NCBI GenBank assembly: GCA_009377445.1 | Contig: WHUA01000004.1 | Location: 85,273 to 149,272 of the forward strand | Source of the DNA: Alphaproteobacteria bacterium | GTDB lineage: Bacteria; Pseudomonadota; Alphaproteobacteria; UBA8366 | Length of the DNA: 64,000 nt | Direction: 5' to 3' | Part shown: piece by piece, positions 6,831-58,443 of the stretch | How positions within the stretch are numbered: position 1 is the first letter of the stretch | Layout of the letters: every line of letters begins with the position of its first letter | Made by a program: the position numbers and the translations under genes | The notes under the pieces: generated by a model | The model's database searches: none | What the model saw: the letters and a program-made list of their open reading frames with translations, nothing else | What the model was told of the DNA's origin: nothing

Positions 6831-6853
6831 AACTGCCATCGGTCGAAACGATA

Positions 6854-10073: not shown

Positions 10074-10280
10074 TCAGGCGCGCCGGCCGAGAAAAAGCAT
10101 AGCCGCGCCCACGGCTATGCCGACGGCACCCAGGATGAGATACAGCATCGTAGAGTCGGTAAACTTCCCGGTAAATGCCTCGGAAATCCGATCCGCAGGC
10201 GCGTCGGACGCGTTGATGCCGAATATCAGCAGCACAACGCCCAACACCAACAGCACGACGGCGATCGCTCGACCATTCAT
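10074..10280 (-). CDS. Small two-TM membrane protein (DUF3185-like)
   Basis: 68-aa ORF with ATG preceded by GGAGG and two hydrophobic helices. The family assignment is from memory only. Confidence 0.6.
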   Translation of the reverse strand: MNGRAIAVVLLVLGVVLLIFGINASDAPADRISEAFTGKFTDSTMLYLILGAVGIAVGAAMLFLGRRA

Positions 10281-10670
10281 AGGAACCTCCTGTGCCTCAT
10301 CACGCGCCGGAAAGGGCCGGCCTGACCCTCGAACGACACATCAACGCGGTCGCCGGTAACAGGTTCCGCCGAATCAGGAACGGGCTTTGCTGCGCCTGGC
10401 GCGCTCCGCGCGCTTCAGCTTTTCAGCCTCGTCGCCCTCGTTTCGCTGTCCGGCCATGATCCGGCGCCCTTCTGCAATGTGATGCCTGCAGAGAAAACGC
10501 CGGCCCGGAAGGCGCAGTTCCATGCGGCGCGCCGGTCACACCAGGCGCGATTCTGGTAGCCCGGTCTGCACAATCGAGCATCGCTTCGACGCGCCATATG
10601 CTACCTTTTCGGGGATACAGGGGTGCAGGTGACGCGCCCAGATCGAAACAATGGGACGGAGGGCTTGAGA

Positions 10671-11099
10671 ATGCTCAAGGAATTCAAAGAGTTCGCGATG
10701 CGCGGCAACGTGGTCGACATGGCGGTGGGCATTATCATCGGCGTGGCGTTCGGTAAGATCATTTCCTCCCTGGTGCAGGACATCATCATGCCGCCGATCG
10801 GCAAGCTGATGGGCAACGTCGATTTCAGCAATCTTTTCATCAACCTTTCGGAGGGAACATTCAATTCGCTGGCAGAGGCCCAGGCAGCGGGTGCGGCGAC
10901 CGTCAACTACGGATTGTTCATCAACACCGTTCTGGATTTCTTGATCGTCGCCTTTGCGATCTTCATGGTGATCCGCGCCATGAACAAATTTAAGCGGAAG
11001 GAAGAGCCGGCGCCGGCGACGACGAAGGAATGCCCGGAATGCCTGTCGACGATTCCGCTCAAGGCCAAGCGTTGCGCCCATTGCACGGCGGCGGTTTGA
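10671..11099 (+). CDS. mscL: Large-conductance mechanosensitive channel MscL
   Basis: [31 protein letters not shown] is the canonical MscL N terminus. ATG 10671 follows GGAGGG. A C-terminal CPEC...CAHC extension is present. Confidence 0.9.
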
Positions 11100-11165
11100 T
11101 CGGGATTCATCGCCCGCCGGCCTGAATGCGGCGGAGTGCGGCCCTGCGGCCGGCGCGGCAGTTCG

Positions 11166-11621
11166 TCATGCCGCCCTGGCCGCAGCCGACCGCGCGAAGG
11201 CCCATTCGATGAGCTTGCTGGAGCAGGCGAACACGAGCAGCGGATAGATTCCGGCGGCGGTCACGGCGTCGCTGGAAAAGGCTCCCTTCGCGACGAAAAT
11301 CAGCAGCGCGACCATGAAGATGTCGAAAAAGGCGACGGGCGCGAACTGCCCGGCGAGCAGCGCCAGCTTCGGCCGGTAGGGCGCCGCCACATAGGCCAGC
11401 GTCTTGACGACCGGAAACACGATGCCGAGAAGGAAGACGGCCGCGGCCAGCAGCCATTCGCCGTTCTCCGCCAGGACCAGCGGAACCCTGTAGAGCACGA
11501 TCTCGCTGGTGAAGACGTAGAGATGGCTGACCGTGACGAGCGGCAGCACAAGGCCCGCACCGAATGCGCATAAATTTAGGATCGCCCATGCGGGCCACCA
11601 ATGCGACGCCTTCAAGTCCAA
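11166..11621 (-). CDS. PqiA-family (paraquat-inducible protein A-like) membrane protein, single domain
   Basis: 151-aa four-helix membrane protein. FDIFMVALLIF and the overall pattern resemble a PqiA half-domain. TTG start. Confidence 0.6.
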   Translation of the reverse strand: MDLKASHWWPAWAILNLCAFGAGLVLPLVTVSHLYVFTSEIVLYRVPLVLAENGEWLLAAAVFLLGIVFPVVKTLAYVAAPYRPKLALLAGQFAPVAFFDIFMVALLIFVAKGAFSSDAVTAAGIYPLLVFACSSKLIEWAFARSAAARAA

Positions 11622-11777
11622 CCCCGCCTCGTTTCCGACCGGAGCCTACACGGAGGGACCGGCGCTCGCCACCCGGCAGTCACGCTCAAGTGACCGGGTA
11701 TCCCCTTCCGATTCCGCAGGCGCTTCCCACCTAGAGTTTGGGGGGACGGGCGGCCTTGATTCGGGAGCCTCGATCTC

Positions 11778-12914
11778 ATGAGCAACAATCGGAAGCCGCG
11801 CGGCGCCTCGAAGAACGAGGAGACGGTGCTCGTGCTGCAAGGCGGCGGCGCGCTGGGCGCATACCAGGCCGGGGTCTACGAAGAGCTGATGCGGACCGGC
11901 CATGCGCCGGATTGGATCGCCGGCATCTCCATCGGCGCCATCAATGCGGCGATCATCGCCGGCAACCCGCCGGAGCGGCGCGTCGAGCGCCTGCGCGCTT
12001 TCTGGGACCTGGTGTCGTCGCAACTTCTGCTAGGACCAATCGGGCCGGGCGAGCAGGCTCGCAGTTTCTTCAATGACGCGAGCGCATCCTTCGCGGTCCT
12101 GTTCGGCCTGCCCGGCTTTTTCGAGCCGCGCATGCCGCCCGCCTGGGCCTACCCGCTCGGCGCGGCGCAAAGCCTCAGCTTCTACGACACGGCGCCGCTG
12201 CGGCGAACGCTGACGGAGCTTGTCGACTTCGATCTCATCAACGCCAAAAGGCTGCGGCTGAGCGTCGGGGCGGTGAATATCCGCAACGGCAACTTCATCT
12301 ATTTCGACAACGAAGAGCAGGACATCCGGCCCGAGCACATCATGGCCAGCTCGGCCTTGCCCCCCGGCTTCCCGCCGGTCGAGGTTGATGGAGAGTTTTA
12401 CTGGGACGGCGGCCTCGTTTCGAACACGCCGCTGCAATTCGTGCTCGACGAGGTGCCGCGCCCGGACATGCTGGTCTTCCAGGTCGACCTGTTCAGCGCG
12501 CGGGGCCTGATGCCGCGCTCGCTGTTCGACGTCTCCGAGCGGGAAAAGGATATCCGCTATTCCAGCCGGACCCGGCTGAATACCGACTTCGCTCGCCATA
12601 ATCAAAACCTGCGGCGCGCCACGCATCGCCTGCTGGCAAAGCTGCCCGCCAGCCTGCGCGAGGACGCGGACGTCAAGCTGCTACGCTCGGCGAACTGCGA
12701 CGCGGCAGTGACCATCGTCCACCTCATCCACCGGCGGAAGGACTACTTCACCCAGTCGAAGGACTTCGAATTTTCCCGTTATTCCATCGACGAGCATTGG
12801 AAGGCCGGCGGCGACGACGTCCGCAGGACCTTCCGCCACAAGGCCTGGCAGAACCGCAGCAAGCCGACGGACGACGTGACCGTCTTCGACCTGACGCGCG
12901 ACGCGCGCGACTGA
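11778..12914 (+). CDS. Patatin-like phospholipase
   Basis: Has the oxyanion [11 protein letters not shown] motif, the nucleophile elbow GISIGA (GxSxG) and the DGG motif ([11 protein letters not shown]). The C-terminal extension is typical of the DUF3734-containing subgroup. Confidence 0.85.
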
Positions 12915-12948
12915 CTTGAACCACAGACTTGAATCAAGGAGCCCGACC

Positions 12949-13731
12949 ATGAGAATGCATGACAAGGTCGCCATCGTCACCGGCGCGGCGCAGGGCATCG
13001 GCGAATGCATCGCGCGGCGCTACGTCGAAGAGGGCGCCCGCGTCGCCATTGCCGACATCAAGCTCGAAGCCGCCACGGAAACCGCCAAGAAACTGACCGC
13101 GGCGGGTCCCGGCGAAGCCATCGGCATCGCCATGGACGTCACCAGCGAGAAGGCCGTCAACGACGGCGTGGCCCAGGTCGCCGAGCGATGGGGCGACATC
13201 GACGTGCTCGTGTCGAACGCCGGCATCCAGATCGTCTACAAGATCGAGGATTTCCCGTTCGCCGACTGGAAGAGGATGCTCGCGATCCACCTCGACGGCG
13301 CGTTCCTCACCACGAAGGCCTGTATCCCCCACATGTACAGGAAGGGCGGCGGCTCGATCATCTACATGGGATCGGTTCATTCGAAGGAGGCATCGCCGCT
13401 CAAGTCAGCCTATGTGACGGCCAAGCATGGCCTGCTCGGCCTCGCCCGCGTCGTCTCCAAGGAAGGCGCGGAGCACGGCGTGCGCGCCAACGTCATCTGT
13501 CCGGGCTTCATCAGGACCCCGCTCGTCGAGAAGCAGATCCCCGAGCAGGCGAAGGAGCTCGGCATCTCCGAGAAGGACGTGGTGGAGAAGATCATGCTGG
13601 GCGGCACGGTGGACAAGCAATTCACGACCGTCGAGGACGTCGCCGAGATCGCCCTCCTCTTCGCCGCCTTCCCCACCAATGCGCTGACCGGGCAATCGCT
13701 GGTGGTCAGCCACGGCTGGTTCATGGAGTGA
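12949..13731 (+). CDS. bdhA: 3-hydroxybutyrate dehydrogenase (SDR)
   Basis: Has TGAAQGIG (cofactor-binding), a YVTAKHG catalytic YxxxK, and the C-terminal [24 protein letters not shown]...VVSHGWFME typical of BdhA. ATG 12949 follows AAGGAG. Confidence 0.85.
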
Positions 13732-13874
13732 GAGCCGTCCGGTAACCATTCGGCGGTCGGCTGGATCGCGCCGATGGACTCCCCGGACAAGCCGGGGAGT
13801 GCCGATTTGTATTTAAATTCAAATATTTACCGTCATGCCGCGGCCGGTATCCGCGCTGCGCATTCCGAGACCCG

Positions 13875-15698
13875 GTGCTGGTACTCAGCAGCGTGATTTT
13901 TGCCGCGTCGTGCAACCAGACCTATACTTCGGGGCCGAACCGGAACCAGACGGAAGCGCCCGCCGTGCCCGACCCCATCGACCCGATCCGCCTCGAGCTC
14001 ATCAAGAACGCGCTGGTCATGATCTCCGACAACATGATGGTGTCGGTGCTGCGGACCTCGCGCTCGACCCTGGTCAAGGCGAACATGGACTTCTCCGCCT
14101 CGATCTGCGACGCGGACGGCAGCATGGTCGGCCAGGGGCTGGCGCTGCCGGGCCATCTCGGCGCGACCATGCCGGCGCTCAAGGGCTGCCTCGATTATTT
14201 CGGCGACGACATCGCGCCGGGCGACATCTTCGCCAACAACGACCCCTACGCCGGCGGCAGCCATCTCAACGACATCTTCATGTTCAAGCCGGTATTCAAG
14301 GATGGCGAGCGCATCTGCTTTCTCGGCCTGATCCTCCACCATACCGACCTCGCGGGCCGCGTCGCCGGCGGACAGGCGGCCGACAGCAACGAGATCTTCG
14401 AGGAAGGGCTTCGCATCCCGCCGAGCAAGATCTATCAGGCCGGCAAGCGCAACGACACGCTGTTCCGCATCATCGAGCACAACACCCGCGTGCCCGATAC
14501 GGTGCTGGGCGACGTGCGCGCGCAGATCGCCGCGCTCAATGCCGGCGCGGCGGAAATCGAGAAGCTGGTCGACCTCTACGGCGCGATCGAGCTGAAGAAA
14601 TACATGAGCGCACTGATCGACTACACCGAGCGGCTGGTGCGAAGCTGCATCCGCGACCTGCCCGACGGGGAAGCCGAGTTCACGGATTACAACGACGACG
14701 ACGGCGTGGGCGGAGGCCCGGTCAAGCTGCACGTGAAGCTCACGGTGAAGGGCGACGAGATCGTCGCCGACTTCACCGGCACCTCGCCGCAGAAGGGCGG
14801 CGCGCTGCACACAAACTACTGGTTCACGGCATCCCTCACCTATGCCGCGCTGCGCGCCGTCATGCCGCCCGACACGCCCAACAACGCCGGCTTCTACCGC
14901 CCCATCACGGTGATCGCGCCCGAGGGAAGCTGGGTCAACCCGCGCTTTCCCGCCGCGCTCGGCGCGCGCGGCCAGGGCGGTTATCGCGTGCGCACGCTTG
15001 TATCCGGCGCGCTCGCGATGCTGCTCCCCGGCCGCATGCCCGCCTGTCCCGGCGGCAACGAGTTCGGCCTGTCGGTCACCGGCCTGACGCCCGAGCGGCG
15101 GCGCTTCCTGCACGTCGAGTTCCACAACATGACGGGGCGCGGCGGCGGCCCGGACGCGGACGGCCAGGACGGCGGCCCCTACTGGCTCGGCAACCTGTCG
15201 AACACGCCGGTCGAGGTGATCGAGGCGGAGAACCCGCTGCTGATCGAGGAATACGGCTTCCTGCCCGACACCGGCGGTCCCGGCAAGTATCGCGGCGGGC
15301 TCGGCGTCGTCCGCCAGTATCGCCTGCTCAACGAGACCGCCACGGTGCAGCAGCGCGCCGACCGGCACCTCTATCCCTGCTGGGGCCTGTTCGGCGGCAA
15401 GCCGGGCGCGCTGTCGAAGTCGTACTTCATCCGCGACGGCAAGCGCGAGGAATCGCCGGCCAAGTTCGTGCGGCCGATGAAGAAGGGCGAGGTCTTCCGC
15501 TCCGAGATGGCGGGCTCCGGCGGCTACGGCGACCCCTTCGAGCGCGACCCCGCGGCCGTCGCCGAAGACGTGCGGCAGGAGAAGATGAGCATCGCCCATG
15601 CCGAGCGCGAATACGGCGTCGCCGTCGACCCGGACACGCTCACCCTCGACCGGCAGCGCACTACCATGCTTCGTCAGAATGCAGGGCGCGCGCGATGA
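13875..15698 (+). CDS. hyuB: Hydantoinase B/oxoprolinase family protein
   Basis: DPIRLELIKNALVMISDNMM and NDPYAGGSHLNDIFMFKPVF are HyuB hallmarks. An alternative GTG start at 13965 would give the usual short N terminus. Confidence 0.85.
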   Translation: MLVLSSVIFAASCNQTYTSGPNRNQTEAPAVPDPIDPIRLELIKNALVMISDNMMVSVLRTSRSTLVKANMDFSASICDADGSMVGQGLALPGHLGATMPALKGCLDYFGDDIAPGDIFANNDPYAGGSHLNDIFMFKPVFKDGERICFLGLILHHTDLAGRVAGGQAADSNEIFEEGLRIPPSKIYQAGKRNDTLFRIIEHNTRVPDTVLGDVRAQIAALNAGAAEIEKLVDLYGAIELKKYMSALIDYTERLVRSCIRDLPDGEAEFTDYNDDDGVGGGPVKLHVKLTVKGDEIVADFTGTSPQKGGALHTNYWFTASLTYAALRAVMPPDTPNNAGFYRPITVIAPEGSWVNPRFPAALGARGQGGYRVRTLVSGALAMLLPGRMPACPGGNEFGLSVTGLTPERRRFLHVEFHNMTGRGGGPDADGQDGGPYWLGNLSNTPVEVIEAENPLLIEEYGFLPDTGGPGKYRGGLGVVRQYRLLNETATVQQRADRHLYPCWGLFGGKPGALSKSYFIRDGKREESPAKFVRPMKKGEVFRSEMAGSGGYGDPFERDPAAVAEDVRQEKMSIAHAEREYGVAVDPDTLTLDRQRTTMLRQNAGRAR

Positions 15699-45955: not shown

Positions 45956-47212
45956 TTATGAGGGCAGCGGGCGGTCCCGCCCGTAGCGGACGTCGGCCCG
46001 GTTCTTGAGCCAAGTGTAGATCGTAACGCGCGAGACGCCGAACTGCCGCGCCGTTCGCGTCACGTTGTTCGCGTTCGCAGCCAGGGCGCGCCGCAGCTCG
46101 TCGACCGACGGCTTCCGCTGGCGAAGCATGGGACGGCCAACGAGGGCGCCCTCGCCGGCCGGCCGGATCGTCAGATCGTCCCGGCGCAGAAATGCGAAGT
46201 CCTTCGCCTCCAGCGCCGTGCCGTCGCACAGGATGACGGCGCGGCGCATTGCGCTGATCAGCTCGCGCACGTTTCCGGGCCAATCGTAAGATTGCAGGAG
46301 ATGCAGCACGGAATCGGACAAGCGCGGGCATGTCACCCCGTGCTCTTCGCTGACGCGGCGCAGCACATAGCGCACGAGCACATCCATGTCGCCCTGACGC
46401 TCCCGCAACGCCGGCAGCTCCAGCCGGAGGACATTGAGCCGGAAATACAGGTCCTTGCGGAAGAAGCCGCCGCGTATCGCCTGCTCGAGATTGACGTTCG
46501 TCGCCGTCACGACGCGCAGACGCACGTGGATCAGCTCCTTGCCGCCCACCCGGCGGAAAGTCATGTCCTGCAGGAATCGGAGAAGCTGCGGCTGCAAGGA
46601 CAGCGGCATGTCGCCGATCTCGTCGAGGAACAGCGTCCCCCCGTCGGCGGCTTCGATGCGCCCGATGCGCCTTTCCGTCGCGCCGGTGAATGCTCCCCGC
46701 TCGTATCCGAAAAGCTCGGACGCGACGAGGTTCTCGGGAAGACCGCCGCAATTGATCGCAATGAACGGTCCCTTGCCGAAGAACGAGCGTTCATGAATCG
46801 CTTTCGCGGCGAGCTCCTTCCCGGTGCCGCTCTCGCCGCTGATCAACACCGGCGCATCGACCTTCGCAAACCGGCGGATGCGGTCGAACACCGCCTTCAT
46901 CGCCGGGCAGGCGCCGACCATCACGGGATCGTCCTCGGCTTCGACAGCCGGCGAGCTCTTTCGCGCGCGAAGCACGTCATCGGCGACCTCTTCGATGAGG
47001 TCCGGATGACGCGCCACGATTCCAAGCAGGATATCGGCAAGTTTCTCAGGTATAAGATGTTTCAGCTCTTCGCGAGCGAGAGATGCCGCGCGTGCGTGCG
47101 GCAAACCCGAAGCGACACCGACCGGACCGATCGTAGCGCGCCCGTCCCGATGCACCGAGATCGCTACCTCCTCCCGCCTCTGCGCCGCCCTCAGAGCGGG
47201 CTGGCGCACCAC
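45956..47212 (-). CDS. Sigma-54-dependent transcriptional activator (bacterial enhancer-binding protein, Fis-type HTH)
   Basis: The AAA+ core has GESGTGKE, the GAFTGA loop (ERGAFTGA) and DWPGNVREL. The C-terminal HTH is NVTRTARQFGVSRVTIYTWLK. The N-terminal region is short (~95 aa) and is not a receiver domain. GTG start, uncertain. Confidence 0.85.
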   Translation of the reverse strand: MVRQPALRAAQRREEVAISVHRDGRATIGPVGVASGLPHARAASLAREELKHLIPEKLADILLGIVARHPDLIEEVADDVLRARKSSPAVEAEDDPVMVGACPAMKAVFDRIRRFAKVDAPVLISGESGTGKELAAKAIHERSFFGKGPFIAINCGGLPENLVASELFGYERGAFTGATERRIGRIEAADGGTLFLDEIGDMPLSLQPQLLRFLQDMTFRRVGGKELIHVRLRVVTATNVNLEQAIRGGFFRKDLYFRLNVLRLELPALRERQGDMDVLVRYVLRRVSEEHGVTCPRLSDSVLHLLQSYDWPGNVRELISAMRRAVILCDGTALEAKDFAFLRRDDLTIRPAGEGALVGRPMLRQRKPSVDELRRALAANANNVTRTARQFGVSRVTIYTWLKNRADVRYGRDRPLPS

Positions 47213-47446: not shown

Positions 47447-48799
47447 ATGAACAATATTTCCGTGTCTTATCATCGAAATATTCTTTTTTTGCTCTCTTTC
47501 GTTGTTATTCAAATCTACGTTATCAAAACTGCGCTCGCTTCGGAGTTGCGGCAATATGACAATGAAATCAGCCAACTCGAACAATCTCTGACAGAGCAGA
47601 AACAGCGCATGAAGGCGCAGGAGCGCCTGCTGGAAGAGTATCGGGCCGCACTGGACCGTCAGAGCGGCGACTTAGACGCACTCAAACGCCAGGTCCAGGA
47701 AAAGGCGGTACAAGAGAGCGCGGCTTCCGCCCCGCACGCGAACGGCATCCCCCGGGTGCAACCGGCTTCTCTTCCCGGCGATCGGGGTGCGGTCGCGCCC
47801 GTGCAACCCAACGGCGCGGGAAGGCACGGCGCAACGCCTGCCGCGAGCAAATCGGCGGTCGCGCAGTCGACCTCGGTACAGGAGGAAAAGCCGCGCGAAC
47901 GTCCCGATGTGCCGCTGATCGTGGATAGGGGCGGCGTCCTTCTCCGCCAGGGCGAAATCGTGATCGAACCGGCCCTCGATTTCAGCCTCGTCGAAACGAA
48001 CCGTGTCGAAGTCGCCGGCTTTACCGTGCTGCCGGCGATTCTCATCGGGAATTTCGATGTCTCGCAGGTCGAGCGAGAGACGCTCACCGCCGCCCTGACG
48101 GGACGGATCGGCGTCACGGACCGGCTTGAGCTGGAGGCCCGCGTCCCTTATGTCCGCCGCGACGATCGTGAAACGCGCCGGCCGATCGGAACGGGCGCCG
48201 CCGATGACGAAACCGTCGACATCGACGGCGACGGCCTCGGCGACATCGAATTCGCAGCGCACTACCAGATCAATGACGGCGTCGGCCGTTGGCCTTACTT
48301 CGTCGCCAACATGCGGGCGAAATCCGATACGGGAACCAGCCCGTTCGATGTCGACACCGATGCCTCGGGCAATCCGACCGAGCTTCCCACCGGCACAGGG
48401 TTCTGGAGCCTGCAGCCCAGCATCACCGCGATCGTGCCGACCGATCCCGCGGTCGTATTCGCCAATATCAACTACACCTGGAACATGTCGAGAGACGTCG
48501 ACGGATTCGGCGACATCGACCCCGGCGATACTTTCGGCGGAAGCCTGGGTCTCGGATTCGCGTTGAACGAAAAGCTGTCCATCAGCATGGCGTATGACCA
48601 CATCTATGTCCTGGAGACGACCCAGAACGGGGCGGACAACAACTCCGCCTTCCATGTCGGGCGGATGCTGTTCGGCGGCTCCTACCGGTTCGCCGACCGC
48701 GCCGCGGTCAACCTGAACTTCGCGGTCGGCGTCACCGAGCAGGCGCCGGATATCCAGACAGAGCTGCGCGTGCCGATAAGCTTCCGCCCGTTCAATTGA
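47447..48799 (+). CDS. Outer-membrane beta-barrel protein with N-terminal coiled coil and A/P-rich linker (FapF-like architecture)
   Basis: Has a signal peptide (..IKTALA-SE), a heptad-rich helix ELRQYDNEISQLEQSLTEQKQRMKAQERLLEEYRAALDRQSGDLDALKRQVQEK and a low-complexity linker. About 300 aa of alternating amphipathic strands follow, ending in ELRVPISFRPFN. ATG follows GGGAGG. Confidence 0.65.
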   Translation: MNNISVSYHRNILFLLSFVVIQIYVIKTALASELRQYDNEISQLEQSLTEQKQRMKAQERLLEEYRAALDRQSGDLDALKRQVQEKAVQESAASAPHANGIPRVQPASLPGDRGAVAPVQPNGAGRHGATPAASKSAVAQSTSVQEEKPRERPDVPLIVDRGGVLLRQGEIVIEPALDFSLVETNRVEVAGFTVLPAILIGNFDVSQVERETLTAALTGRIGVTDRLELEARVPYVRRDDRETRRPIGTGAADDETVDIDGDGLGDIEFAAHYQINDGVGRWPYFVANMRAKSDTGTSPFDVDTDASGNPTELPTGTGFWSLQPSITAIVPTDPAVVFANINYTWNMSRDVDGFGDIDPGDTFGGSLGLGFALNEKLSISMAYDHIYVLETTQNGADNNSAFHVGRMLFGGSYRFADRAAVNLNFAVGVTEQAPDIQTELRVPISFRPFN

Positions 48800-48814
48800 G
48801 CGCGGCGGGATGGG

Positions 48815-49423
48815 TCAGCGGAACGTACTGAGGTGGCGAAGCTGACTCATGCGGGTCTGCATGTTCGTCACCGCCTGCGGCTGGATGAACTGGCTCGCTT
48901 GCAGATCGAGCTGGACCGCCATCTGTTGCTGGATGACCACGTTCGACAGCGTGTTCTGCACCGTCATCATGAAGCCGTTCGCGCCGTTGAAACTGGTCGG
49001 CGCCACATTGCCGTTCCCGGCCTGGACGGATGTCACGATCTGGTTGATCGCATCGGCCAGCTTCACGTTGCCTGTGACAGGCACACCGAACCCGCTCGTG
49101 TCGAAATTCGTCACGCCCCCGGTAATCCCGGTCGCGGGCGAGAAGGTAAGCCGGCCTTCGTAAATCCGCTGGCCGTTGATCTGGGCGGCGACATCTATCG
49201 CGAAATTCAACAGGCCGGTCGGCATGACGAACCCGCCCCGCATCCGGGCGAGCTGCTCGTCCGGAACCACCTCGTAGCGCGCGAATTCGGCGACAAGCTG
49301 CCGGCCGGCCGGGCGCATCTCCTGCGCCGGCGCCGGGCCCGGCGCCATTGCACCGACAAGGGCGAAGACGGTGAGCGCCCAGCCCGCCCGCCATCTCGCC
49401 GCCCCTGCTGCAATGCGCAACAT
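48815..49423 (-). CDS. Secreted protein sharing the cluster C-terminal VQN..NV.IQ..MAV motif
   Basis: Signal peptide ..APGPAPA-QE. VTSVQAGNGNVAPTSF and FMMTVQNTLSNVVIQQQMAVQLDL are related to the repeats of the 560-aa and 121-aa proteins. The start lies 1 nt after the upstream stop. Confidence 0.6.
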   Translation of the reverse strand: MLRIAAGAARWRAGWALTVFALVGAMAPGPAPAQEMRPAGRQLVAEFARYEVVPDEQLARMRGGFVMPTGLLNFAIDVAAQINGQRIYEGRLTFSPATGITGGVTNFDTSGFGVPVTGNVKLADAINQIVTSVQAGNGNVAPTSFNGANGFMMTVQNTLSNVVIQQQMAVQLDLQASQFIQPQAVTNMQTRMSQLRHLSTFR

Positions 49424-49424
49424 C

Positions 49425-50153
49425 TCAAAAATCCCCCGGCCTCGGCATCAATAAGTTGAACGAAGCGAGACTTGCCCGACTGAGCGCCGTGCCGAACGGC
49501 GCACTGTGGCGCACTTTCCAAGCCTCGGCCCGATTGAAGGTCTCGTTGGCCGACTTGTTCTTGTTCTGAATGACGAAGGCGATGCCGTTCCACATGGCTT
49601 CAAACTCGCCGCGCGGATAGGTCTTCATGCCAAGCGCAGGATCGCCGACCAGGACCTCGGTATCGCTGACGCCCTTCACCACCACGAAATGCAGGTACCC
49701 CTTCAAATTCATCAACACCACACCGGGGATCTTCGCCTGCACGAAGGCATCGAGCGGCGCCTTGAAGCCGTTCGCCGCGAAACCCTCCCGCTCGAGGTAT
49801 TCCTTCATGTCCAGCAGCGAGAAGCCCTGCGTCCGAATCTTCGACTCCTCGCCGAACAGGAGCATCGAATCGAAAATCTCCATCTCAGTCACGGCGAAGC
49901 CGTAGTGATAGGTGAGAAGCGTCGCGAGCGCGGCCGATCCGCAACTGAAGTCGAACTGTTGCTTGATGACGTCCTTGAATCGCGCCTCCTTGATGCTCGT
50001 CACCTCGACGCGGACATAGCCCAATCCGCCCGGCGCGACGGTTCCCGCCACGGACGGCGCTGCATGCGCCAGGAAGGCCATAAGGCTGCCCGAGGCGATG
50101 CAGGCCGTGACGCAGCGCAAACGCGCCCGCGAGCTATTGAACGAAGTTGACAT
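49425..50153 (-). CDS. Periplasmic C39-like cysteine peptidase (FapD-like)
   Basis: Has an N-terminal signal/anchor. QQFDFSCGSAALATLLTY supplies the catalytic Cys, and GYLHFVVVKGVSDTEVLVGDP supplies the His and Asp. No ABC transporter domains are attached. Confidence 0.75.
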   Translation of the reverse strand: MSTSFNSSRARLRCVTACIASGSLMAFLAHAAPSVAGTVAPGGLGYVRVEVTSIKEARFKDVIKQQFDFSCGSAALATLLTYHYGFAVTEMEIFDSMLLFGEESKIRTQGFSLLDMKEYLEREGFAANGFKAPLDAFVQAKIPGVVLMNLKGYLHFVVVKGVSDTEVLVGDPALGMKTYPRGEFEAMWNGIAFVIQNKNKSANETFNRAEAWKVRHSAPFGTALSRASLASFNLLMPRPGDF

Positions 50154-50499
50154 CGACCGCCATGTTGGTCTGGATGATCACATTGTTGCCGATATTCTGA
50201 ACGGCCACGAAGGCGCCCGCCGAGTTCGCGAGCGCGCCGTTACCGATCACATTGTTCGCGGTGAACGCCCCGCTCGTCGACGAATTTCCGGTAAGCGTCG
50301 CCGTCATGTTGCCGAGCGTACAGCCCGACGCGCAGTCCGGCAGCGCCATGCCGCGCAGGGTTTCGAGCTCCGCCGCGTCGACGGGCTGTCCGAAATGCGC
50401 CTGCAGCAGCGCCGCATCGTCGGCGCGTGCTGCTCCCGAGACGGCAACCGCCGCCGCCGCGGCGAAGATGAGAGAAACTCCGATACTGGGGGTCATCAT
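50134..50499 (-). CDS. Small secreted protein carrying a single copy of the cluster repeat
   Basis: Signal peptide ..VSGAARA-DD. NVIGNGALANSAGAFVAVQNIGNNVIIQTNMAV aligns position by position with the NTIDGGAFNDGAGIATVQQNNGDNNVINA unit of the 560-aa protein. ATG 50499 is preferred over TTG 50511. It overlaps the next gene by 20 nt. Confidence 0.6.
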   Translation of the reverse strand: MMTPSIGVSLIFAAAAAVAVSGAARADDAALLQAHFGQPVDAAELETLRGMALPDCASGCTLGNMTATLTGNSSTSGAFTANNVIGNGALANSAGAFVAVQNIGNNVIIQTNMAVDVNFVQ

Positions 50500-50542
50500 A
50501 CGGATTCCCAAGTAGTGCAGTCTTCTCCGCTAACAAAGAGGT

Positions 50543-50570
50543 GGAAGGTGAGGACACGCCCCCACCTTCC
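50543..50570 (-). terminator. Stem-loop between the repeat-protein gene and downstream genes (possible partial terminator/attenuator)
   Basis: GGAAGGTG-N12-CACCTTCC is a perfect 8-bp stem 18 nt after the stop at 50588. On the transcribed strand it is followed by ACCTCTTTGTT, which is only a weak U-tract. Confidence 0.35.
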
Positions 50571-50587
50571 GGCAGTAACTTGCGCTC

Positions 50588-52270
50588 TTAAGGCGTAATG
50601 ACGTTGGCCACCACGGCAATCGAAGACTGTATCGCGTTGTTGCTGCCGTTGTTCTGCTGCACCGTCTTGATGCCGGCGAAGCCGTTGAACGAGTCGGACA
50701 GCGTGTTCTGGTATCCCGGCGGCACGTTCGTCGGCGCGATGACTGCAATATTTCCGGATACCACCGCCGTGATCGTCGTATCGTCGACGATACTGCCATT
50801 GAACCCGACGAAGTTCGCATTGTCGCTGAGCCCGGCGACGACCGCCTTGGATGCGTTGATCACGTTGTTGTCGCCGTTGTTCTGCTGCACGGTGGCGATA
50901 CCGGCGCCGTCGTTGAAGGCGCCGCCGTCGATCGTATTGACGCGGTCGACGTTGGCGGTCTCGACGGCGAGATTGTTCGTGACCTCGGCATGCGTACGCG
51001 CGTCTACCGCCGCATCCCCTCCGTCGATCTGACCGCTGGTGAACAGCGTGGCGACAACGGCAGTCAGCGCATTCATTGCGTTGTTGTTGCCGTTGTTCTG
51101 CTGCACCGCCGTCAAGCCGACGGCTTCCGAGAACGAGCCCTCGTCGATGGTGTTGATCCGGTTCTGATCCTGGTCCGTCGTGTTGAGGCTCGAGTTGTTG
51201 TTCGTGACAAACCCGGCCGCGCTCACGACAACAGCGGACGCGTCATCGATATCATCCACGGTGAGGAAATGTGCCCGCACCGCGTTGCCGACGTTCATGG
51301 CGTTATTGTCGCCGTTGTTCTGCTGCACGTTGACGATGCCGCCCGGACCCACGAACGCATCGCTGATGAGGTTCGTCCGATCGTACGGCGTCGGCGGTCC
51401 GGCGTCGCTCTGGGCAAAGCCGGTATTGTTGGTCACCACCGCGGTTGCAACGAGCGATTGCAGTGCGTCTTCGCTGGGGTCTACGTCGGTCGTGGTGCCG
51501 AGGTCGGCGATGACGGAGTTGGCCGCCTGGATGACGTTGCCGTTGCCGTTGTTCTGCTGCACCGACGCCATGCCGACGAACTCCGCGAATGCGCCGCCGT
51601 CGATCGTGTTGGTCCGCTCGCCGGTGATATCGCCGCCGCTGACGACGTTCACCTCCGATGTGATAAGGCCGGTCACGGTCGCTTCGAGGAGAACTTCCTG
51701 CGAGCTGTCGTCGTGGTTCTCGCCATTCTGGCCGAAGAGGTTCGGGCCGATATTGGCCGAAACGACGTCGCCGATCCCGAGGACGTTCCCGTCGCCGTTG
51801 TTCTGCTGCACATCGACGATGCCGCTGGCGCCCGCGAACGCATCGGTGATCGTATTCTCGCGGAAGGACGACGCGAGCGGCCCCGGCGCGTTGTTGGAGT
51901 AGTCGCCGCCGATCGTCGACCCGCGAAGCCAGAGCTGCTGCGACACGTCACCCCCGCTCCCAGGGGCCGCCGTGCTGATGACGACGTTCGACGCGATTCC
52001 TAACGCGTTGCTGTTGCCGTTGTTCTGTTGGTCGTGGCTGATGCCCGTAAAATTGTTGGCATAGCCGCCACTGATATCGTTGCTTCGCAGAGATCCGGGA
52101 TCCAGCGTAAAGTTGACGCCTACGAACTGATCCAGCGTGAGCTGATCCGGCAAGGTGGGTACGAGCCCATTGTCGTTCTGCTGGATCTGCTGTGCGAGCG
52201 CCCCGCTCGAGGCCGCCCCGAGCAGAACCAGGGCCGAGGCCGAAGCCAGCAATACGTTTTTGAAGTTCAT
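50588..52270 (-). CDS. Secreted 560-aa N/Q/G-rich protein with seven VQQNNGxNN repeat units (putative fibre/amyloid major subunit)
   Basis: ATG 52270 follows AAGGAG. Signal peptide ..SSGALA-QQ. It carries seven units of the form N-T-I-D-x-x-F-x-x-x-x-G-I-x-x-V-Q-Q-N-N-G-x-x-N-x-x-x-x-x-x-x-V. No Cys residues and no recognisable anchor, autotransporter or RTX domain. Confidence 0.75.
   Translation of the reverse strand: MNFKNVLLASASALVLLGAASSGALAQQIQQNDNGLVPTLPDQLTLDQFVGVNFTLDPGSLRSNDISGGYANNFTGISHDQQNNGNSNALGIASNVVISTAAPGSGGDVSQQLWLRGSTIGGDYSNNAPGPLASSFRENTITDAFAGASGIVDVQQNNGDGNVLGIGDVVSANIGPNLFGQNGENHDDSSQEVLLEATVTGLITSEVNVVSGGDITGERTNTIDGGAFAEFVGMASVQQNNGNGNVIQAANSVIADLGTTTDVDPSEDALQSLVATAVVTNNTGFAQSDAGPPTPYDRTNLISDAFVGPGGIVNVQQNNGDNNAMNVGNAVRAHFLTVDDIDDASAVVVSAAGFVTNNNSSLNTTDQDQNRINTIDEGSFSEAVGLTAVQQNNGNNNAMNALTAVVATLFTSGQIDGGDAAVDARTHAEVTNNLAVETANVDRVNTIDGGAFNDGAGIATVQQNNGDNNVINASKAVVAGLSDNANFVGFNGSIVDDTTITAVVSGNIAVIAPTNVPPGYQNTLSDSFNGFAGIKTVQQNNGSNNAIQSSIAVVANVITP
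50646..52033 (-). repeat. In-frame periodic coding repeat (seven copies of CCGTTGTTCTGCTGCAC on the plus strand)
   Basis: Copies lie at 50646, 50874, 51090, 51312, 51546 and 51795, with a variant at 52017 (CCGTTGTTCTGTTGGTC). Spacings are 228, 216, 222, 234, 249 and 222 nt, all multiples of 3. Confidence 0.85.
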
Positions 52271-52421
52271 GTCTTGCTCACTCCTTATGTATGACACACA
52301 GGTTCCGACATGCAGTTTTCGTCGTTTCTGCCTTCGGCCGCTGCGCAAACGAGTGCCCGTGAGGCGGCCCGGCCTCTGCCCAAAAAGGGACACGCCGAAC
52401 AAGAAGACATTTGTGGAAGGC

Positions 52422-52436
52422 GCAATGATCGTGCCA
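52422..52436 (-). promoter_or_regulatory. Consensus sigma-54 promoter upstream of the repeat-protein gene
   Basis: The minus strand reads TGGCACG-ATCA-TTGC, an exact match to TGGCACG-N4-TTGC. It lies about 150 nt upstream of ATG 52270. Confidence 0.7.
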
Positions 52437-52544
52437 GCCGCGAAGCGCCCGGCGGGCGGCGGCAAACCGGCGGTAATTAACGAAGATTGACGCCCGGCCG
52501 GCCGGTGCGGACGGGGCGCGACTGTATCGATCTGTTAACGCTTA

Positions 52545-52570
52545 CTGTAAAGCTGACAGGCGCTTTACAG
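52545..52570. promoter_or_regulatory. Inverted repeat CTGTAAAGC-N8-GCTTTACAG, candidate enhancer (UAS) for the 52422 sigma-54 promoter
   Basis: A perfect 9-bp inverted repeat centred ~120-135 bp upstream of the -24/-12 element. The same CTGTAAA/TTTACAG half-sites recur at 53774..53801. Confidence 0.5.
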
Positions 52571-52606
52571 AATGCGGGACCATCAACCGCTTCTTTTTCA
52601 TTCTCG

Positions 52607-53224
52607 TTATTTCCAATCCTGGTAGATCGCGAGAAGCGTACGCCGATCCGGAACGCCGGTTTCCGGCAGCTTCTTCTTTTTCTGGTAGGTGCTGATCGCC
52701 GTCGCCGTACCCTTGCCGAACTTGCCGTCGACGGCGCCCTTGTAGAGTCCCTGTTGCTTCAATGTCTGCTGCACGCGGCGTACGGTTTCCTCGAAGACGT
52801 GGATCTTTCCCTTGCCGGCCTCGATGCTTGCGACCGGCGATTGGCTCTCGATCCGGTATTTGTGCAGCTCGCGCGTCACGACATAGACGGCCGACGCGAA
52901 ATTGACTTTCTTGTTGCCGTCGCAGAAGGTCGCGACCACGCCGGATATGGCGTCTAGATCGAAATCCGCGGCGGCGTCATACGTCTCCGCGCCGAACTGG
53001 CTGTAGGCGGTAATGTAGCCGTTGGCCCATTCCCGGAAGAAGAGATAGGCCGGCGACGCGGCCTTGCGTTCGGCGAGGTAGCGTTCGCAGGGCTGGCTGC
53101 CGAACCCGCGGACAAAGTAGTTTCCTGCCTTGTCCCCTGCGCTTGCCGCGCTGGCCGACATCATGACGGCGGCGATGAACACCAGCAGCGCCAGCGTCTT
53201 CTTGTTGCTTTTCTTCGTAGCCAC
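52607..53224 (-). CDS. Secreted protein with C-terminal peptidoglycan-binding (PG_binding_1-like) domain
   Basis: GTG 53224 follows AAAGGGGA. Signal peptide KKTLALLVFIAAVMMSASAASA. The C terminus VRRVQQTLKQQGLYKGAVDGKFGKGTATAISTYQKKKKLPETGVPDRRT is a typical PG-binding repeat. The upstream part of ORF 52607..53635 is rejected. Confidence 0.65.
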   Translation of the reverse strand: MATKKSNKKTLALLVFIAAVMMSASAASAGDKAGNYFVRGFGSQPCERYLAERKAASPAYLFFREWANGYITAYSQFGAETYDAAADFDLDAISGVVATFCDGNKKVNFASAVYVVTRELHKYRIESQSPVASIEAGKGKIHVFEETVRRVQQTLKQQGLYKGAVDGKFGKGTATAISTYQKKKKLPETGVPDRRTLLAIYQDWK

Positions 53225-53265
53225 CGGTTTCCCCTTTATTTCACGTCTTGGGCCGGACCCCGGAC

Positions 53266-53622
53266 TCAGCGGACCTGCACGTTGACGCCGCGCGCGACAG
53301 TCGAGTTGACGCCGCTCCCCGGCGACACCCCGTTTCGTTTCGGCCGGCCCAACTCGTCGAACAGGATGACCGATACATCGCCCGGCGGCGGCGCATCCGC
53401 CTCGACGGCGGTTTTCGCCCCCAGGCCGGAGACCGCTCGCAATTCGGCATCGTTTAGCTCGCCGCGGGCCGCAAAGGTCCCGGCGGCGCCCGTGCCGGGC
53501 ATGCCTGCCGCGTCGGCTGCCGTGACGCGCGGACGGATTTCGTCCGCCACCGCCGGCATCGCCGCGAGGGCCGTTCCAGCGCATAGCATTGTTGTCGCCA
53601 ACAGGCGACACGAGAACCGCAT
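53266..53622 (-). CDS. Small secreted protein (118 aa), first gene of the minus-strand cluster
   Basis: ATG follows GAGGTG. Signal peptide MRFSCRLLATTMLCAGTALAAMPAVA. Third-position GC is high. I recognise no family. Confidence 0.5.
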   Translation of the reverse strand: MRFSCRLLATTMLCAGTALAAMPAVADEIRPRVTAADAAGMPGTGAAGTFAARGELNDAELRAVSGLGAKTAVEADAPPPGDVSVILFDELGRPKRNGVSPGSGVNSTVARGVNVQVR

Positions 53623-53665
53623 CGTATTCGCTCACCTCGCCGTCATCGTATTGTCGCGAAAAGCA

Positions 53666-53680
53666 GCAAGAACCGTGCCG
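53666..53680 (-). promoter_or_regulatory. Sigma-54 promoter upstream of the 118-aa gene
   Basis: The minus strand reads CGGCACG-GTTC-TTGC; only the first base differs from TGGCACG-N4-TTGC. It lies about 45 nt upstream of ATG 53622. Confidence 0.65.
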
Positions 53681-53773
53681 CGCCGCCGCAAGGCGAATTC
53701 GGGCCGGCCAGCCTCGAATTGCCGTCTATTCCGCCTCGGAGGACGGCGTCTCCGCCGCATCGCACGGATCCGT

Positions 53774-53801
53774 CTGTAAATCCCCACTGTAAACTTTACA
53801 G
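53774..53801. promoter_or_regulatory. CTGTAAA half-site plus CTGTAAA-C-TTTACAG palindrome, candidate enhancer (UAS) for the 53666 sigma-54 promoter
   Basis: CTGTAAA lies at 53774..53780 and CTGTAAACTTTACAG at 53787..53801, about 95-135 bp upstream of the -24/-12 element. Confidence 0.5.
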
Positions 53802-53838
53802 CGCGCCGACGGCGCGCCGTTTCTGGTTTCCGTCCCGC

Positions 53839-55188
53839 ATGCCGCGTGACACAATCGTGCGCCGGAAAGGAGATTTTCCTTTGCCTCGTCTGGCCTTTTC
53901 ATGGGGCGCTGGCTGCCTGCTCGCGATACTTTCCGCCTGCTCGAACGACGACGCCCTGATCAAGACGACCGCCGGGTACCCGCCGGTGGAGATGCAGCCG
54001 TCCGATCTGCCGAGCTTCGCGATCGGCGACAGCTTCACCTTCGACAATCCGGACGAGACATGGACGGTTTCGGGGATTCAGGACGGGCTGGTGATTTGGC
54101 GCAGCTCGCTCGGCGGTTCCCGAAAGACGGTATTCGCCCCCTTCGTCCCGCCAATCGAATGGACGGCGAAGGGTAACGCAGCCGGTGAAGAGCGACTGAC
54201 CGGTTGGGGCGACGGGCTCTTTCCTTTGAAGGGCGGGAAGAAGACGGCGTTCCGGACGCGCGCGCGAATGAACGGAGAAGCCGATGCGACACCGTTCGAG
54301 TGGAAATGTTACTCCGGCAATCCGCGCAAGGTGACGGTGAAGGCCGGCGCGTACGCGGCCTATCCGCTCTTCTGCCGGCGCAACGACGGCCTGACGACGC
54401 AATCCTTCTACGCCCCCGAAGTCAATGCGCCGCTGATGATAACCCAGCGTAAGCGCCCGGCCCCGGCGGAAACGCGCGAGCTGGTGGGCTTCAAGCTCGC
54501 CACAGGACCGCGGATTGCCGCGACGCCGGCCCACGGCCTGCCGAAGGGTGTCGCGCTCGCCGCCGTGGAGCCCGCGGCGCGTCCGGCGCAACCCGCCGGA
54601 ACAGCCGTCGCCGACGCTGGCGGCGCGCCCGTCGCGCCGTCGTCGGCACCGTCGTCGACACCAGCGTCCACACCGGCTTCAGCATCGCCGCCCGCTGCGG
54701 CCCTTGCCCCACCGCCGCAGATCGCCCACGCGGCTGCGCAGCGCCCGCCGGCCATCGCGGCGCGCCCCGCCGCGCCCGTCTCCAGTGGGACGCCGACGAT
54801 CGCGCCGCCGCCGCGTATCGGGCCGCCGGCCGCCGCAACGCCGCCGGTAATCGCGCTGGCGCCGCCCGCCAGCGCGACGACGCCCGCGGACAAGGTTGAG
54901 CCGCGCGCGGCAAGCGGCCCAACCTTGTCCGCGGGCTTCGGCGCGCAAATCGCGTCCTATCAGGTTCCCGCGAACGTCGAACGCGGCTGGGTCAGCCTGC
55001 GGCAACGGCACGGGCCATTGCTGGACAGCGTGGGACACGTGGTCCGGCGGGTCGAACTCGGCGGCGGCAAAGGCGTCTTCCACCGATTGCTTGCCGGGCC
55101 TTTCCCGGCGCGTTCGTCCGCGGAGCAACTGTGCAGGTCGATCCGCAGCCGCGGCGCCGGATGCATTGTCCAGCCGCTCGAAGGGTGA
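53839..55188 (+). CDS. Lipoprotein with long Pro/Ala-rich linker and C-terminal SPOR domain
   Basis: Lipobox LAILSAC-S, then ~130 aa of P/A/S low complexity. The C-terminal FGAQIASYQVPANVERGW...FHRLLAGPFPARSSAEQLC is a SPOR (septal peptidoglycan-binding) pattern. Confidence 0.7.
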   Translation: MPRDTIVRRKGDFPLPRLAFSWGAGCLLAILSACSNDDALIKTTAGYPPVEMQPSDLPSFAIGDSFTFDNPDETWTVSGIQDGLVIWRSSLGGSRKTVFAPFVPPIEWTAKGNAAGEERLTGWGDGLFPLKGGKKTAFRTRARMNGEADATPFEWKCYSGNPRKVTVKAGAYAAYPLFCRRNDGLTTQSFYAPEVNAPLMITQRKRPAPAETRELVGFKLATGPRIAATPAHGLPKGVALAAVEPAARPAQPAGTAVADAGGAPVAPSSAPSSTPASTPASASPPAAALAPPPQIAHAAAQRPPAIAARPAAPVSSGTPTIAPPPRIGPPAAATPPVIALAPPASATTPADKVEPRAASGPTLSAGFGAQIASYQVPANVERGWVSLRQRHGPLLDSVGHVVRRVELGGGKGVFHRLLAGPFPARSSAEQLCRSIRSRGAGCIVQPLEG

Positions 55189-57435: not shown

Positions 57436-57954
57436 ATGTGGAGCAAAGCTGGTATTTTAGTAGTAGCACTCGTAGCATTCGCCGCGCCCGCCAAAGCATT
57501 GCTGGTGGATGGTAGTTTTAAGATCACTCTCACGGGAGAGAAGATCGTTCCAAGTCCCGGCACGTTCGATGTAATCGGCAGCTCCGTTGTGAACTTCACG
57601 ATGGACCTATTTAGCAATAATGACGGTCCAGATCGCTTCAGTACCTATAGCACTGACTCGACGCTCGAACCGTCGAACTTCGGCACGGTTCTTGAGGGCG
57701 ACATCACGAACGACTGGCATGCCGGCTTCGGTATCATCCAACGAATTACATTCACCACCGAAGGAACTTGGGTATGCATTGGAGTCAGTGGGTGCGCAAC
57801 GAACTCATTTTTTCTGGAACTCGGCGACCGCGGTAGTTACACAATCTCGCCCGAGGTTTCGGCCGTCCCGCTTCCCGCTGCGGTGTGGCTGTTCCTGTCC
57901 GCCCTGGGCGGCCTTGGCCTGTTCGGGTGGCGAAAGCGTCGGGCAGACGCGTAG
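57436..57954 (+). CDS. Secreted protein with C-terminal VPLPA-CTERM-type sorting signal
   Basis: ATG follows GGGAGAGG. Signal peptide ..AAPAKA-LL. The C terminus VPLPAAVWLFLSALGGLGLFGWRKRRADA has the motif, a TM helix and a basic tail. Lower-GC gene. Confidence 0.65.
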   Translation: MWSKAGILVVALVAFAAPAKALLVDGSFKITLTGEKIVPSPGTFDVIGSSVVNFTMDLFSNNDGPDRFSTYSTDSTLEPSNFGTVLEGDITNDWHAGFGIIQRITFTTEGTWVCIGVSGCATNSFFLELGDRGSYTISPEVSAVPLPAAVWLFLSALGGLGLFGWRKRRADA

Positions 57955-58354: not shown

Positions 58355-58443
58355 TGGCGGAGGGACCGGGAATCGAACCCGGGCAACGGTATTACCCGTT
58401 GACGGATTAGCAATCCGCTGCATTACCGCTCTGCCATCCCTCC
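58355..58443 (-). tRNA. tRNA-Ser (anticodon GCU)
   Basis: The 89-nt reverse complement GGAGGGATGGCAGAGCGGTAATGCAGCGGATTGCTAATCCGTCAACGGGTAATACCGTTGCCCGGGTTCGATTCCCGGTCCCTCCGCCA folds as a class II tRNA. It has a 7-bp acceptor stem, anticodon loop TTGCTAA, a long variable arm (AACGG/CCGTT), a T-arm CCGGG-TTCGATT-CCCGG and an encoded CCA. Confidence 0.92.

Follow-up and report, generated by a model that had tools for sequence, protein, structure and literature searches.

A putative divergent Fap-type secretion cluster with a seven-repeat cargo protein in an alphaproteobacterial genome

A stretch of 64,000 nt from contig WHUA01000004.1 of assembly GCA_009377445.1, which we refer to as the window and whose numbering is used for all coordinates, contains at 47447-53680 a cluster of seven open reading frames (ORFs) that probably encodes a divergent Fap-type system, in which a FapD/FapE/FapF-dependent machine would secrete and assemble an extracellular fibre made of a repeat protein. 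To our knowledge only two functional-amyloid systems of Gram-negative bacteria are well studied, and Fap is one of them. One ORF, for an outer-membrane barrel, lies on the plus strand and the other six on the minus strand. An earlier reading made from the DNA alone (the sequence-only reading) had listed the same seven ORFs, and they are confirmed by ORF calls, by the independent Logan assembly SRR10173838, which has identical genes in identical order, and by GenBank (GEU87_09290-09315, from a metagenome-assembled genome (MAG) named ‘Alphaproteobacteria bacterium’), where every cluster gene is labelled ‘hypothetical protein’. On inspection each of the seven N-termini combines a basic n-region, a hydrophobic h-region and an AxA-like c-region, and all seven products look like Sec-targeted proteins, as that reading had held. 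It had also described the cluster as free of other export machinery, and Pfam and NCBIfam searches indeed revealed no ATP-binding cassette (ABC) or type I secretion system (T1SS), autotransporter or two-partner secretion (TPS), or CsgG/E/F-like genes within or beside it; the same searches gave no match for the products of 560, 121 and 118 aa (p560, p121 and p118). Related loci were recovered through the family of p560, the putative cargo, in a survey of one genome per species across 185,579 species, which yielded 21 loci.

The plus-strand gene (47447..48799) encodes a FapF-like outer-membrane transporter. Along its entire length the protein aligns with the NCBIfam FapF model (E=3.6e-45) with a score of 154 bits, under the 700-bit equivalog cutoff, as is the score of canonical Aeromonas FapF (371 bits). 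By sequence it also matches crystallised FapF (PDB 5o65, E=4.8e-30), and it shares 29% identity with the Aeromonas protein. An AlphaFold2 (AF2) model, computed from an alignment of 35 homologs, predicts a helix at residues 6-93 corresponding to a coiled coil, a disordered Ala/Pro-rich linker at 94-161 and a beta-barrel at 171-446, and an N-terminal coiled coil followed by a linker is a hallmark of FapF (Rouse 2017, PMC5557850). In a Foldseek search with this model the best 18 matches were all FapF chains (5o67, E=2e-22, TM-score ~0.8), with COG4313 (4rl8, E=4e-13) next. The second PTG motif of FapF is kept (LPTGTG), the first reads DTG, and the FF of FapF aligns with LL. The COG4313 match, together with precomputed PF13557 (Phenol_MetA_deg) matches on many barrel homologs and the name ‘transporter’ that NCBI gives to some relatives, would fit a COG4313/FadL-like uptake channel for hydrophobic substrates that adjoins the cluster by chance. 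We regard this as highly improbable, since FapF matches the fold nine orders of magnitude better, the coiled coil and linker are FapF hallmarks, and the barrel gene is linked with C39 and FapE-like genes in 13 loci as well as in Sphingomonadales and Cupriavidus. Judged by profile and predicted fold, the barrel is a FapF homolog rather than another porin, and its N-terminal coiled coil, already proposed from the sequence, is present in the AF2 model.

The minus-strand gene at 49425..50153 encodes a FapD-like C39 cysteine peptidase of 242 aa. Its earlier assignment to C39 is supported by Pfam (Peptidase_C39, 4e-22), and among the NCBIfam models FapD (1e-48) ranks ahead of FilB (2.4e-34); its identity with FapD of Aeromonas caviae is 38%. 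Cys71, His155 and Asp171 fall in register with the catalytic residues of the double-glycine peptidases ComA, PCAT1 and LahT, and the nearest solved relatives of the protein are double-glycine leader peptidases. The N-terminus carries its own Sec signal by inspection, so the enzyme would act in the periplasm, like FapD; by these comparisons the peptidase is FapD-like and periplasmic, with its catalytic triad present. The comparison locus used here is the canonical A. caviae fap operon, whose identity was checked with NCBIfam. Accepted Fap systems share 39% identity in FapD and 32% in FapF (Dueholm 2013, PMC3792158), so that values of 38% and 29% against Aeromonas place the divergence of the window cluster in the range of accepted Fap systems. 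In FapD, Cys38 is essential for secretion, and the substrate of the peptidase has been stated to be unknown (Rouse 2017; PMC5557850, PMC6173800).

Between the FapD-like and FapF-like genes, which is the position of fapE, lies the gene for a FapE-like subunit of 202 aa, p202 (48815..49423, minus strand), in which a Sec signal is followed by the leader VPDEQLARMRGG (aa 53-64), a central Q-G-x-G-N and a C-terminal TVQNxxxNVVIQ. Its match to NCBIfam FapE is weak and confined to aa 53-78 (E=0.05); a profile of the p202 family (14 sequences) aligns with Aeromonas FapE in hhalign at 87.7% probability (E=3.4e-6). In a joint alignment of 18 FapE-like sequences from the window clade, Sphingomonadales, Cupriavidus metallidurans CH34 and Aeromonas, L58, R62 and G63 are invariant, the second leader glycine and the glycine of G-x-G-N are nearly so, and the V-Q-N...I motif aligns too. 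The leader motif was found at aa 31-65 in 57 of 59 FapE-like proteins gathered by a word-prefiltered profile search, a set that includes Aeromonas FapE and leaves Pseudomonas FapE outside, and both exceptions are truncated. Taken together, the profile similarity of the barrel, the peptidase and p202 to FapF, FapD and FapE upholds the Fap-like machine that had been suggested from the sequence.

In the p202 family the leader comes directly after the Sec signal and reads [VIL]-x-x-x-E-L-x-x-M-R-G-G-F, close to the classical leader consensus of C39 substrates, LSxxELxxIxGG. Looser versions occur in the families of two further secreted proteins of the cluster: phi-S-x-x-E-L-x-x-x-R-G-[GMKT] in that of p121 (121 aa, 50134..50499, minus strand), a small subunit with a Sec signal, the leader-like VDAAELETLRGM and the C-terminal repeat AFVAVQNIGNNVIIQTNMAVDV, and L-N-x-x-x-L-x-x-x-S-G-[LF]-G in that of p118 (53266..53622, minus strand), where it appears as LNDAELRAVSGLG. 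In vivo, FapE lacks its first ~70 residues (Rouse 2017; PMC5557850, PMC6173800). Given this finding and what is known of FapD, the likeness of the motif to the classical leader and the nearest solved relatives of the peptidase, we consider p202, p121 and p118 probable substrates of the FapD-like peptidase, cut at the leader motif. The near-invariance of the leader in the FapE family makes the question of the FapD substrate, open since 2017, directly testable. The cargo p560 has no double-glycine leader, which parallels unprocessed FapC. In the Aeromonas strain used for comparison (L023) an upstream IS/transposase insertion seems to have deleted fapA and to have cut short the 5′ end of fapB, where a leader would be sought.

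A homolog of p121 lies directly 3′ of the cargo gene in ~15 loci, with both leader and C-terminal motif kept, and this C-terminal motif is shared with p202 (BLASTP E=3e-4), as the sequence-only reading had observed. That reading had also credited p121 with one copy of the p560 repeat; within the window this match is weak (E=0.16), and the small subunits of other loci match better. p121 is a candidate nucleator or minor subunit and a positional analogue of FapB. Straight after its leader-like motif, at aa 55-60, stands a C-x-x-x-C pair (DCASGC) that is kept only in the closest relatives (L001 and L002). Homologs of p118 were detected in just two related loci (L005 and L019), with the motif kept in all three proteins, which points to a lineage-restricted accessory protein. 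Double-glycine-type leaders on three small proteins, beside a C39 domain that is closest, among solved structures, to leader peptidases for bacteriocins or quorum peptides, could also suit a peptide or bacteriocin export locus, with p118, p121 and p202 as its main matured products and p560 incidental. Such a locus seems to us very improbable: the cluster has no ABC transporter, the Sec signal of the peptidase would place it in the periplasm like FapD, no other neighbour is as constant as the p560 homolog, which has a conserved sigma-54 promoter of its own, and p560 and the small proteins have repeat motifs in common.

The putative major cargo or fibre subunit itself, p560 (50588..52270, minus strand; 560 aa), consists of a Sec signal and seven repeats. 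The count of seven made from the sequence is exact, with QQNNG centres at aa 81, 155, 238, 316, 390, 462 and 538, spaced by 72-83 aa and embedded in the core R-x-N-T-I-x-x-x-F-x-x-x-x-G-I-x-x-V-Q-Q-N-N-G-x-x-N. The protein contains 13% Asn, 11% Gly and 11% Ala, has no Cys and has a pI of 4.1. AF2 predicts a single compact, periodic all-beta domain (predicted local distance difference test, pLDDT, 82.5; predicted TM-score, pTM, 0.87), consistent with the repeat fold anticipated earlier. Homologs have from 4 to 38 repeats at a constant period, and a repeat number that varies at constant period is what would be expected of a stackable unit. The family is rare: an exhaustive HMMER search of 1.84 billion representatives with the cargo-family profile retrieved 347 at E<=1e-3 and 91 at <=1e-30, and a word-indexed search retrieved 92 clusters in 5.8 billion proteins. 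A cargo homolog of 3063 aa with 38 repeats is encoded at 4718-13909 of one locus (L012), one Sneathiellales MAG has four separate cargo loci (L003/L006/L008/L011), and a single Joint Genome Institute (JGI) contig of 5.29 Mb encodes at least a dozen cargo paralogs (among proteins P0033-P0059). Some cargo-family members (P0019, P0020, P0024, P0035, P0075 and others) have a precomputed Pfam PF27129 match, and a recent Pfam family or domain of unknown function may already cover part of the cargo family.

When compared with the PDB by Foldseek, the p560 model gave nothing significant; CsgA ranked first (E=0.08), followed by assorted beta-helices. This rank and the Asn/Gln/Gly-rich repeats would suit a curli-type (Csg) system, which we find scarcely credible, since none of the nine proteins scanned matched Curlin_rpt or CsgG/E/F/B/C in Pfam or NCBIfam and the transport components are of Fap type. 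The curlin resemblance that the sequence-only reading saw in the repeats is not borne out, and a curli relationship was rejected on gene content.

Several results weigh against a Fap-type fibre system. p560 had no NCBIfam FapB or FapC match (E>0.1); phmmer and a repeat profile run against the PDB missed FapC, though FapC is in the PDB; hhalign of the p560 repeats with the three repeats of UK4 FapC and with Aeromonas FapB and FapC was non-significant; the repeat hidden Markov model (HMM) scored Fap repeats not above composition-matched shuffles (the best FapC domain reached p ~0.015, all else being non-significant); and a Foldseek search with the p560 model did not retrieve the FapC fibril chains. 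The minimal Fap repeat has been written as X15-G-X4-N-X3-G-X6-N-X7, in three repeats (Dueholm 2013, PMC3792158), and the window repeat, G-X4-Q-X3-G-X5-N, fails this pattern, with its first N changed to Q and its last N shifted by one. Among the cluster proteins no FapA homolog was found with NCBIfam, and the AF2 model of the barrel lacks the FapF plug helix, in a region of low confidence. Signal peptides and cleavage sites were judged by eye, and both fibre or amyloid formation and leader proteolysis are what we infer from sequences and models. Loss of FapA and a detached fapF are known variations of Fap systems (Dueholm 2013, PMC3792158). We did not assign p560 as FapC, the PDB profile, hhalign, NCBIfam and shuffle tests being non-significant or marginal.

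Other comparisons of the repeats are more suggestive. Four p560 repeats align gap-free and in a common register to a single Aeromonas FapC repeat (BLASTP E=0.02, 41% over 37 aa), as in the pair TIDGGAFNDGAGIATVQQNNGDNN (p560) and TIDGGAFNGAVGNIGVNVSSGTNN (FapC), with the shared pattern TIDGGAFN..G...V....G.NN. Cargo-family members from Thermithiobacillus match FapB alone among 18,950 models (E=1.5e-4), and the published consensus of FapB repeat 3, G-psi-psi-Q-psi-N-Q-x-a-G-g-N-x-N, resembles the window core (PMC12392863). These similarities hint at a remote common ancestry of the cargo repeats and the FapB/C repeats, and of the FapB/C likeness claimed earlier it is this remote similarity that stands, not detection by HMM. 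On present comparisons a Fap-homologous export machine appears to be present, but strict Fap membership fails on FapB/C.

The same machine might instead export p560 as a beta-helical adhesin or matrix protein, either monomeric or anchored at the surface, which would fold by itself after export and form no amyloid. This would agree with the compact and confident AF2 monomer, in which the long segments between motifs are modelled as strands, with the presence of Ag43, SRRP and tapirin besides CsgA among the top fold neighbours (none significant), with a repeat homology to FapB/C that is not statistically established, and with the adhesin-like size of giant homologs, up to 3063 aa. AF2, however, also models CsgA and FapC, which are true amyloids, as monomeric solenoids (PMC12392863), Asn/Gln ladders and a lack of Cys are typical of functional amyloids, and both the terminal strand motif shared by the small subunits and the presence of a FapE homolog suit templated polymerisation better than a solitary adhesin. 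We therefore judge the adhesin unlikely, if still a serious contender, and prefer a Fap-type system that assembles a fibre.

The cluster recurs in related genomes. The order cargo, small subunit, C39 and FapE-like gene is kept in 16 of the 21 loci, and a FapF-like gene lies <=10 kb away in 13 of those 16, usually in convergent orientation. Five genes are co-conserved, often joined by the PG-binding (peptidoglycan-binding) gene and the activator gene described below, so that the co-conservation expected of the whole cluster holds for its core and excludes p118. Nearly all hosts are alphaproteobacterial MAGs (Rhodospirillaceae, Azospirillaceae, Sneathiellales, Kiloniellales and Limimonas), which together with the GenBank label bears out the alphaproteobacterial setting proposed from the sequence; Thermithiobacillus tepidarius is a non-alphaproteobacterial host, and a family member was found in Indioceanicola profundi in a plasmid collection. 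ORFs of the Aeromonas, Cupriavidus and Indioceanicola plasmid records were called by hand. The Hyphomicrobiales named in the sequence-only reading were not confirmed as the setting: the nearest relatives are Rhodospirillales-type MAGs, and the best GTDB relative is 52% identical, from which it follows that the window species has no GTDB representative. Two loci have labels from other phyla, Anaerolineae (L014) and Flavobacteriales (L015); the p202 of the former is 98% identical to that of L012 and the C39 of the latter 92% identical to that of L007, so they most likely reflect binning contamination rather than cross-phylum spread.

Divergent from the barrel gene lies that of a sigma-54-dependent activator (45956..47212, minus strand; Pfam Sigma54_activat 1.8e-66, HTH_8), which comprises an AAA+ domain and a Fis-type helix-turn-helix without a receiver domain; its best NCBIfam score is with a PEP-CTERM-box regulator model, under the cutoff. 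A homologous activator adjoins the cluster in nine related loci. The putative -24/-12 promoter of the cargo operon, TGGCACGATCATTGC (52422..52436, minus strand), has the exact consensus: TGGCAC-N5-TTGC, 166 bp 5′ of the p560 gene, has no second exact match in 64 kb, where 0.14 matches are expected, and 10 related loci have -24/-12 sites 100-170 bp 5′ of their cargo homolog. A second, sigma-54-like promoter with one mismatch, cGGCACGGTTCTTGCT (53665..53680, minus strand), lies on the correct strand 5′ of the p118 and PG-binding genes, 43 bp from the p118 ATG. For the barrel gene no sigma-54 promoter was found, the sole candidate being TGGCC-N4-TTGC, of wrong spacing. The canonical A. caviae fap operon (L023, NZ_AP026896.1, 1718-4201) is likewise flanked by an activator homologous to that of the window (E=1.5e-74), so sigma-54 control is no distinguishing novelty. 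The sequence-only reading had counted such control among the peculiarities of the cluster; the exact cargo promoter and the adjacent activator support it, but it is not unique and does not extend to the barrel gene. A terminator consensus scan also located, between the p560 and p121 genes, a G+C-rich hairpin of 12 bp followed by a T-rich tail (50543..50570, minus strand). By analogy with pilin operons, this hairpin may act as a partial terminator and so hold cargo mRNA above machinery mRNA.

The remaining cluster gene (52607..53224, minus strand) encodes a secreted protein of 205 aa whose C-terminal peptidoglycan-binding domain (Pfam PG_binding_1 6e-15) had been recognised earlier; its uncharacterised N-terminal domain has two Cys, and in 11 related loci a homolog is encoded 5′ of the cargo gene. 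Beyond the cluster and divergent from it, the plus strand encodes at 53719-55188 (start at 53881 in GenBank and Logan) a protein that combines a SPOR domain and a long Pro/Ala-rich linker. Its homolog (E=1.5e-118) is also a neighbour in L005, the closest GTDB relative, so that synteny reaches past the cluster. A 172-aa protein encoded at 57436-57954 (plus strand), ~4 kb away from the cluster, carries at its C-terminus an exosortase-type sorting signal, VPLPA-CTERM, and a PEPxxWA-CTERM protein adjoins the barrel gene of the Polymorphobacter Fap-like locus; CTERM proteins near Fap-like loci may reflect a matrix-related association. The sole tRNA of the window is tRNA-Ser(GCT) (58355-58443, minus strand), and the ten large window ORFs that were scanned encode accessory metabolism or transporters, with no marker gene among them.

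A working model can be assembled from these parts. The activator would turn on two -24/-12 promoters, one serving p118 and the PG-binding gene and the other p560, p121, the C39 peptidase and p202, with the hairpin after p560 keeping cargo transcripts in excess. All products would pass the inner membrane via Sec, and the FapF-like protein would form a gated 12-strand outer-membrane pore, tethered by its coiled coil and probably trimeric. In the periplasm the C39 peptidase would recognise the leaders of p202 (ELxxMRGG|F), p121 and p118, and cutting might license or open secretion. The Cys-free, Asn/Gln/Gly/Ala-rich p560 could then cross the pore unfolded and, at the surface, fold or polymerise to give a beta-solenoid stack or an amyloid-like fibre, each ~75-aa repeat making up one layer. 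p121 and p202, which share the C-terminal V-Q-N...I-Q strand motif of p560, may nucleate or cap assembly, and the PG-binding protein may anchor or position the machinery at the cell wall.

More tentatively, and at somewhat less than even probability, we speculate that the cluster is the prototype of an unrecognised and widespread Fap-like branch in Alphaproteobacteria, some Betaproteobacteria and Acidithiobacillia, with a two-part address and a new QQNNG class of amyloid. In this broader proposal, whose elements are held jointly at the same confidence, a Sec signal is followed by a double-glycine leader whose removal by the C39 peptidase licenses passage through the FapF-like pore. If true, it would answer what FapD cuts, canonical FapE included, and the QQNNG protein would be a new functional-amyloid class with ~75-aa layers and 4-38 repeats per chain. 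The cargo family as such is a natural series of predicted beta-solenoid proteins with 4-38 repeats, useful for amyloid biophysics and materials.

Among known systems, curli offers a functional analogy only, that of Sec-dependent extracellular nucleation-precipitation in which Asn/Gln-rich repeats form a beta-solenoid; no component homologous to it, and no curlin repeat, was found in the window cluster. The Acinetobacter Fil ‘putative pilus’ system likewise combines a C39 protein and a FapF-like barrel (FilB 2.4e-34, FilC 3.1e-17), but these scores are far below those of FapD and FapF. The C39 domains of PCAT, ComA and LahT share the fold and catalytic residues of the window peptidase, and its putative substrates carry comparable ϕ-x-x-x-E-L-x-x-ϕ-x-G-G-like leaders. 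The window enzyme differs in being free-standing and Sec-exported, with no ABC transporter, and the leader stands C-terminal to the Sec signal rather than at the N-terminus, on predicted substrates that are fibre subunits of 100-200 aa.

The likeness to Fap itself lies in a FapF-type coiled coil with a 12-strand barrel, a periplasmic C39 FapD with its triad, a FapE-like gene between D and F with the same N-terminal ELxxxRG[GR] segment, an adjoining sigma-54 activator, present in Aeromonas too, and Asn/Gln/Gly/Ala-rich repeat subunits that here, too, would travel by Sec and then through an outer-membrane pore. The cargo repeats, by contrast, are unrecognised by FapB/C models and have a period of ~75 aa, whereas Fap has ~38-39-aa repeats plus linkers, and seven of them are present here and 4-38 in members of the family, whereas 94% of FapC have three. 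The order is cargo, small subunit, D and E, with a convergent F and no FapA, in place of the single fapABCDEF operon; the small subunit consists of one repeat and a double-glycine-type leader, and PG-binding and 118-aa proteins are added. Fap was reported in Beta-, Gamma- and Deltaproteobacteria (Dueholm 2013, PMC3792158), and the hosts of window-type clusters, Alphaproteobacteria and Thermithiobacillus, lie outside the range reported in 2013.

Our literature search found no mention of the QQNNG motif and no link of FapC or FapF/FapD with Alphaproteobacteria. Colocalised FapD/FapF pairs beyond canonical Fap were already mentioned in 2018 (PMC6173800). The supplement of that paper lists a CH34 locus with FapD and FapF only, its subunits and FapE-like gene unrecognised, and its criterion of >=4 fap genes left such D/F-pair loci below threshold (PMC6173800). 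A 2025 GTDB-wide Fap survey demanded FapBC_repeat homology. The suggestion that such a system is undescribed thus stands for the subunits and the FapE-like gene, which are unreported, but not for the D/F pairs.

The closest parallels are uncharacterised loci in two Sphingomonadales, Croceicoccus marinus and Polymorphobacter, and on the megaplasmid of Cupriavidus metallidurans CH34. Their architecture is the same as that of the window cluster: a cargo with one terminal repeat, a leader-bearing small subunit that contains a VIQNxGNNVxIQ repeat, the C39 peptidase, an RGG-bearing FapE-like protein and a FapF-like barrel. Unlike the window cargo, theirs have only the single terminal repeat, on cores that are G/A/S-rich, DNS-rich or built of SNRASGYN repeats, and their regulators are of LuxR or other types. 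A FapD/FapE/FapF machine thus appears to have been coupled in Alphaproteobacteria to very different repeat cargos, all labelled ‘hypothetical’ and escaping the published Fap HMM criteria, which would widen the known range and the cargo diversity of Fap-type systems.

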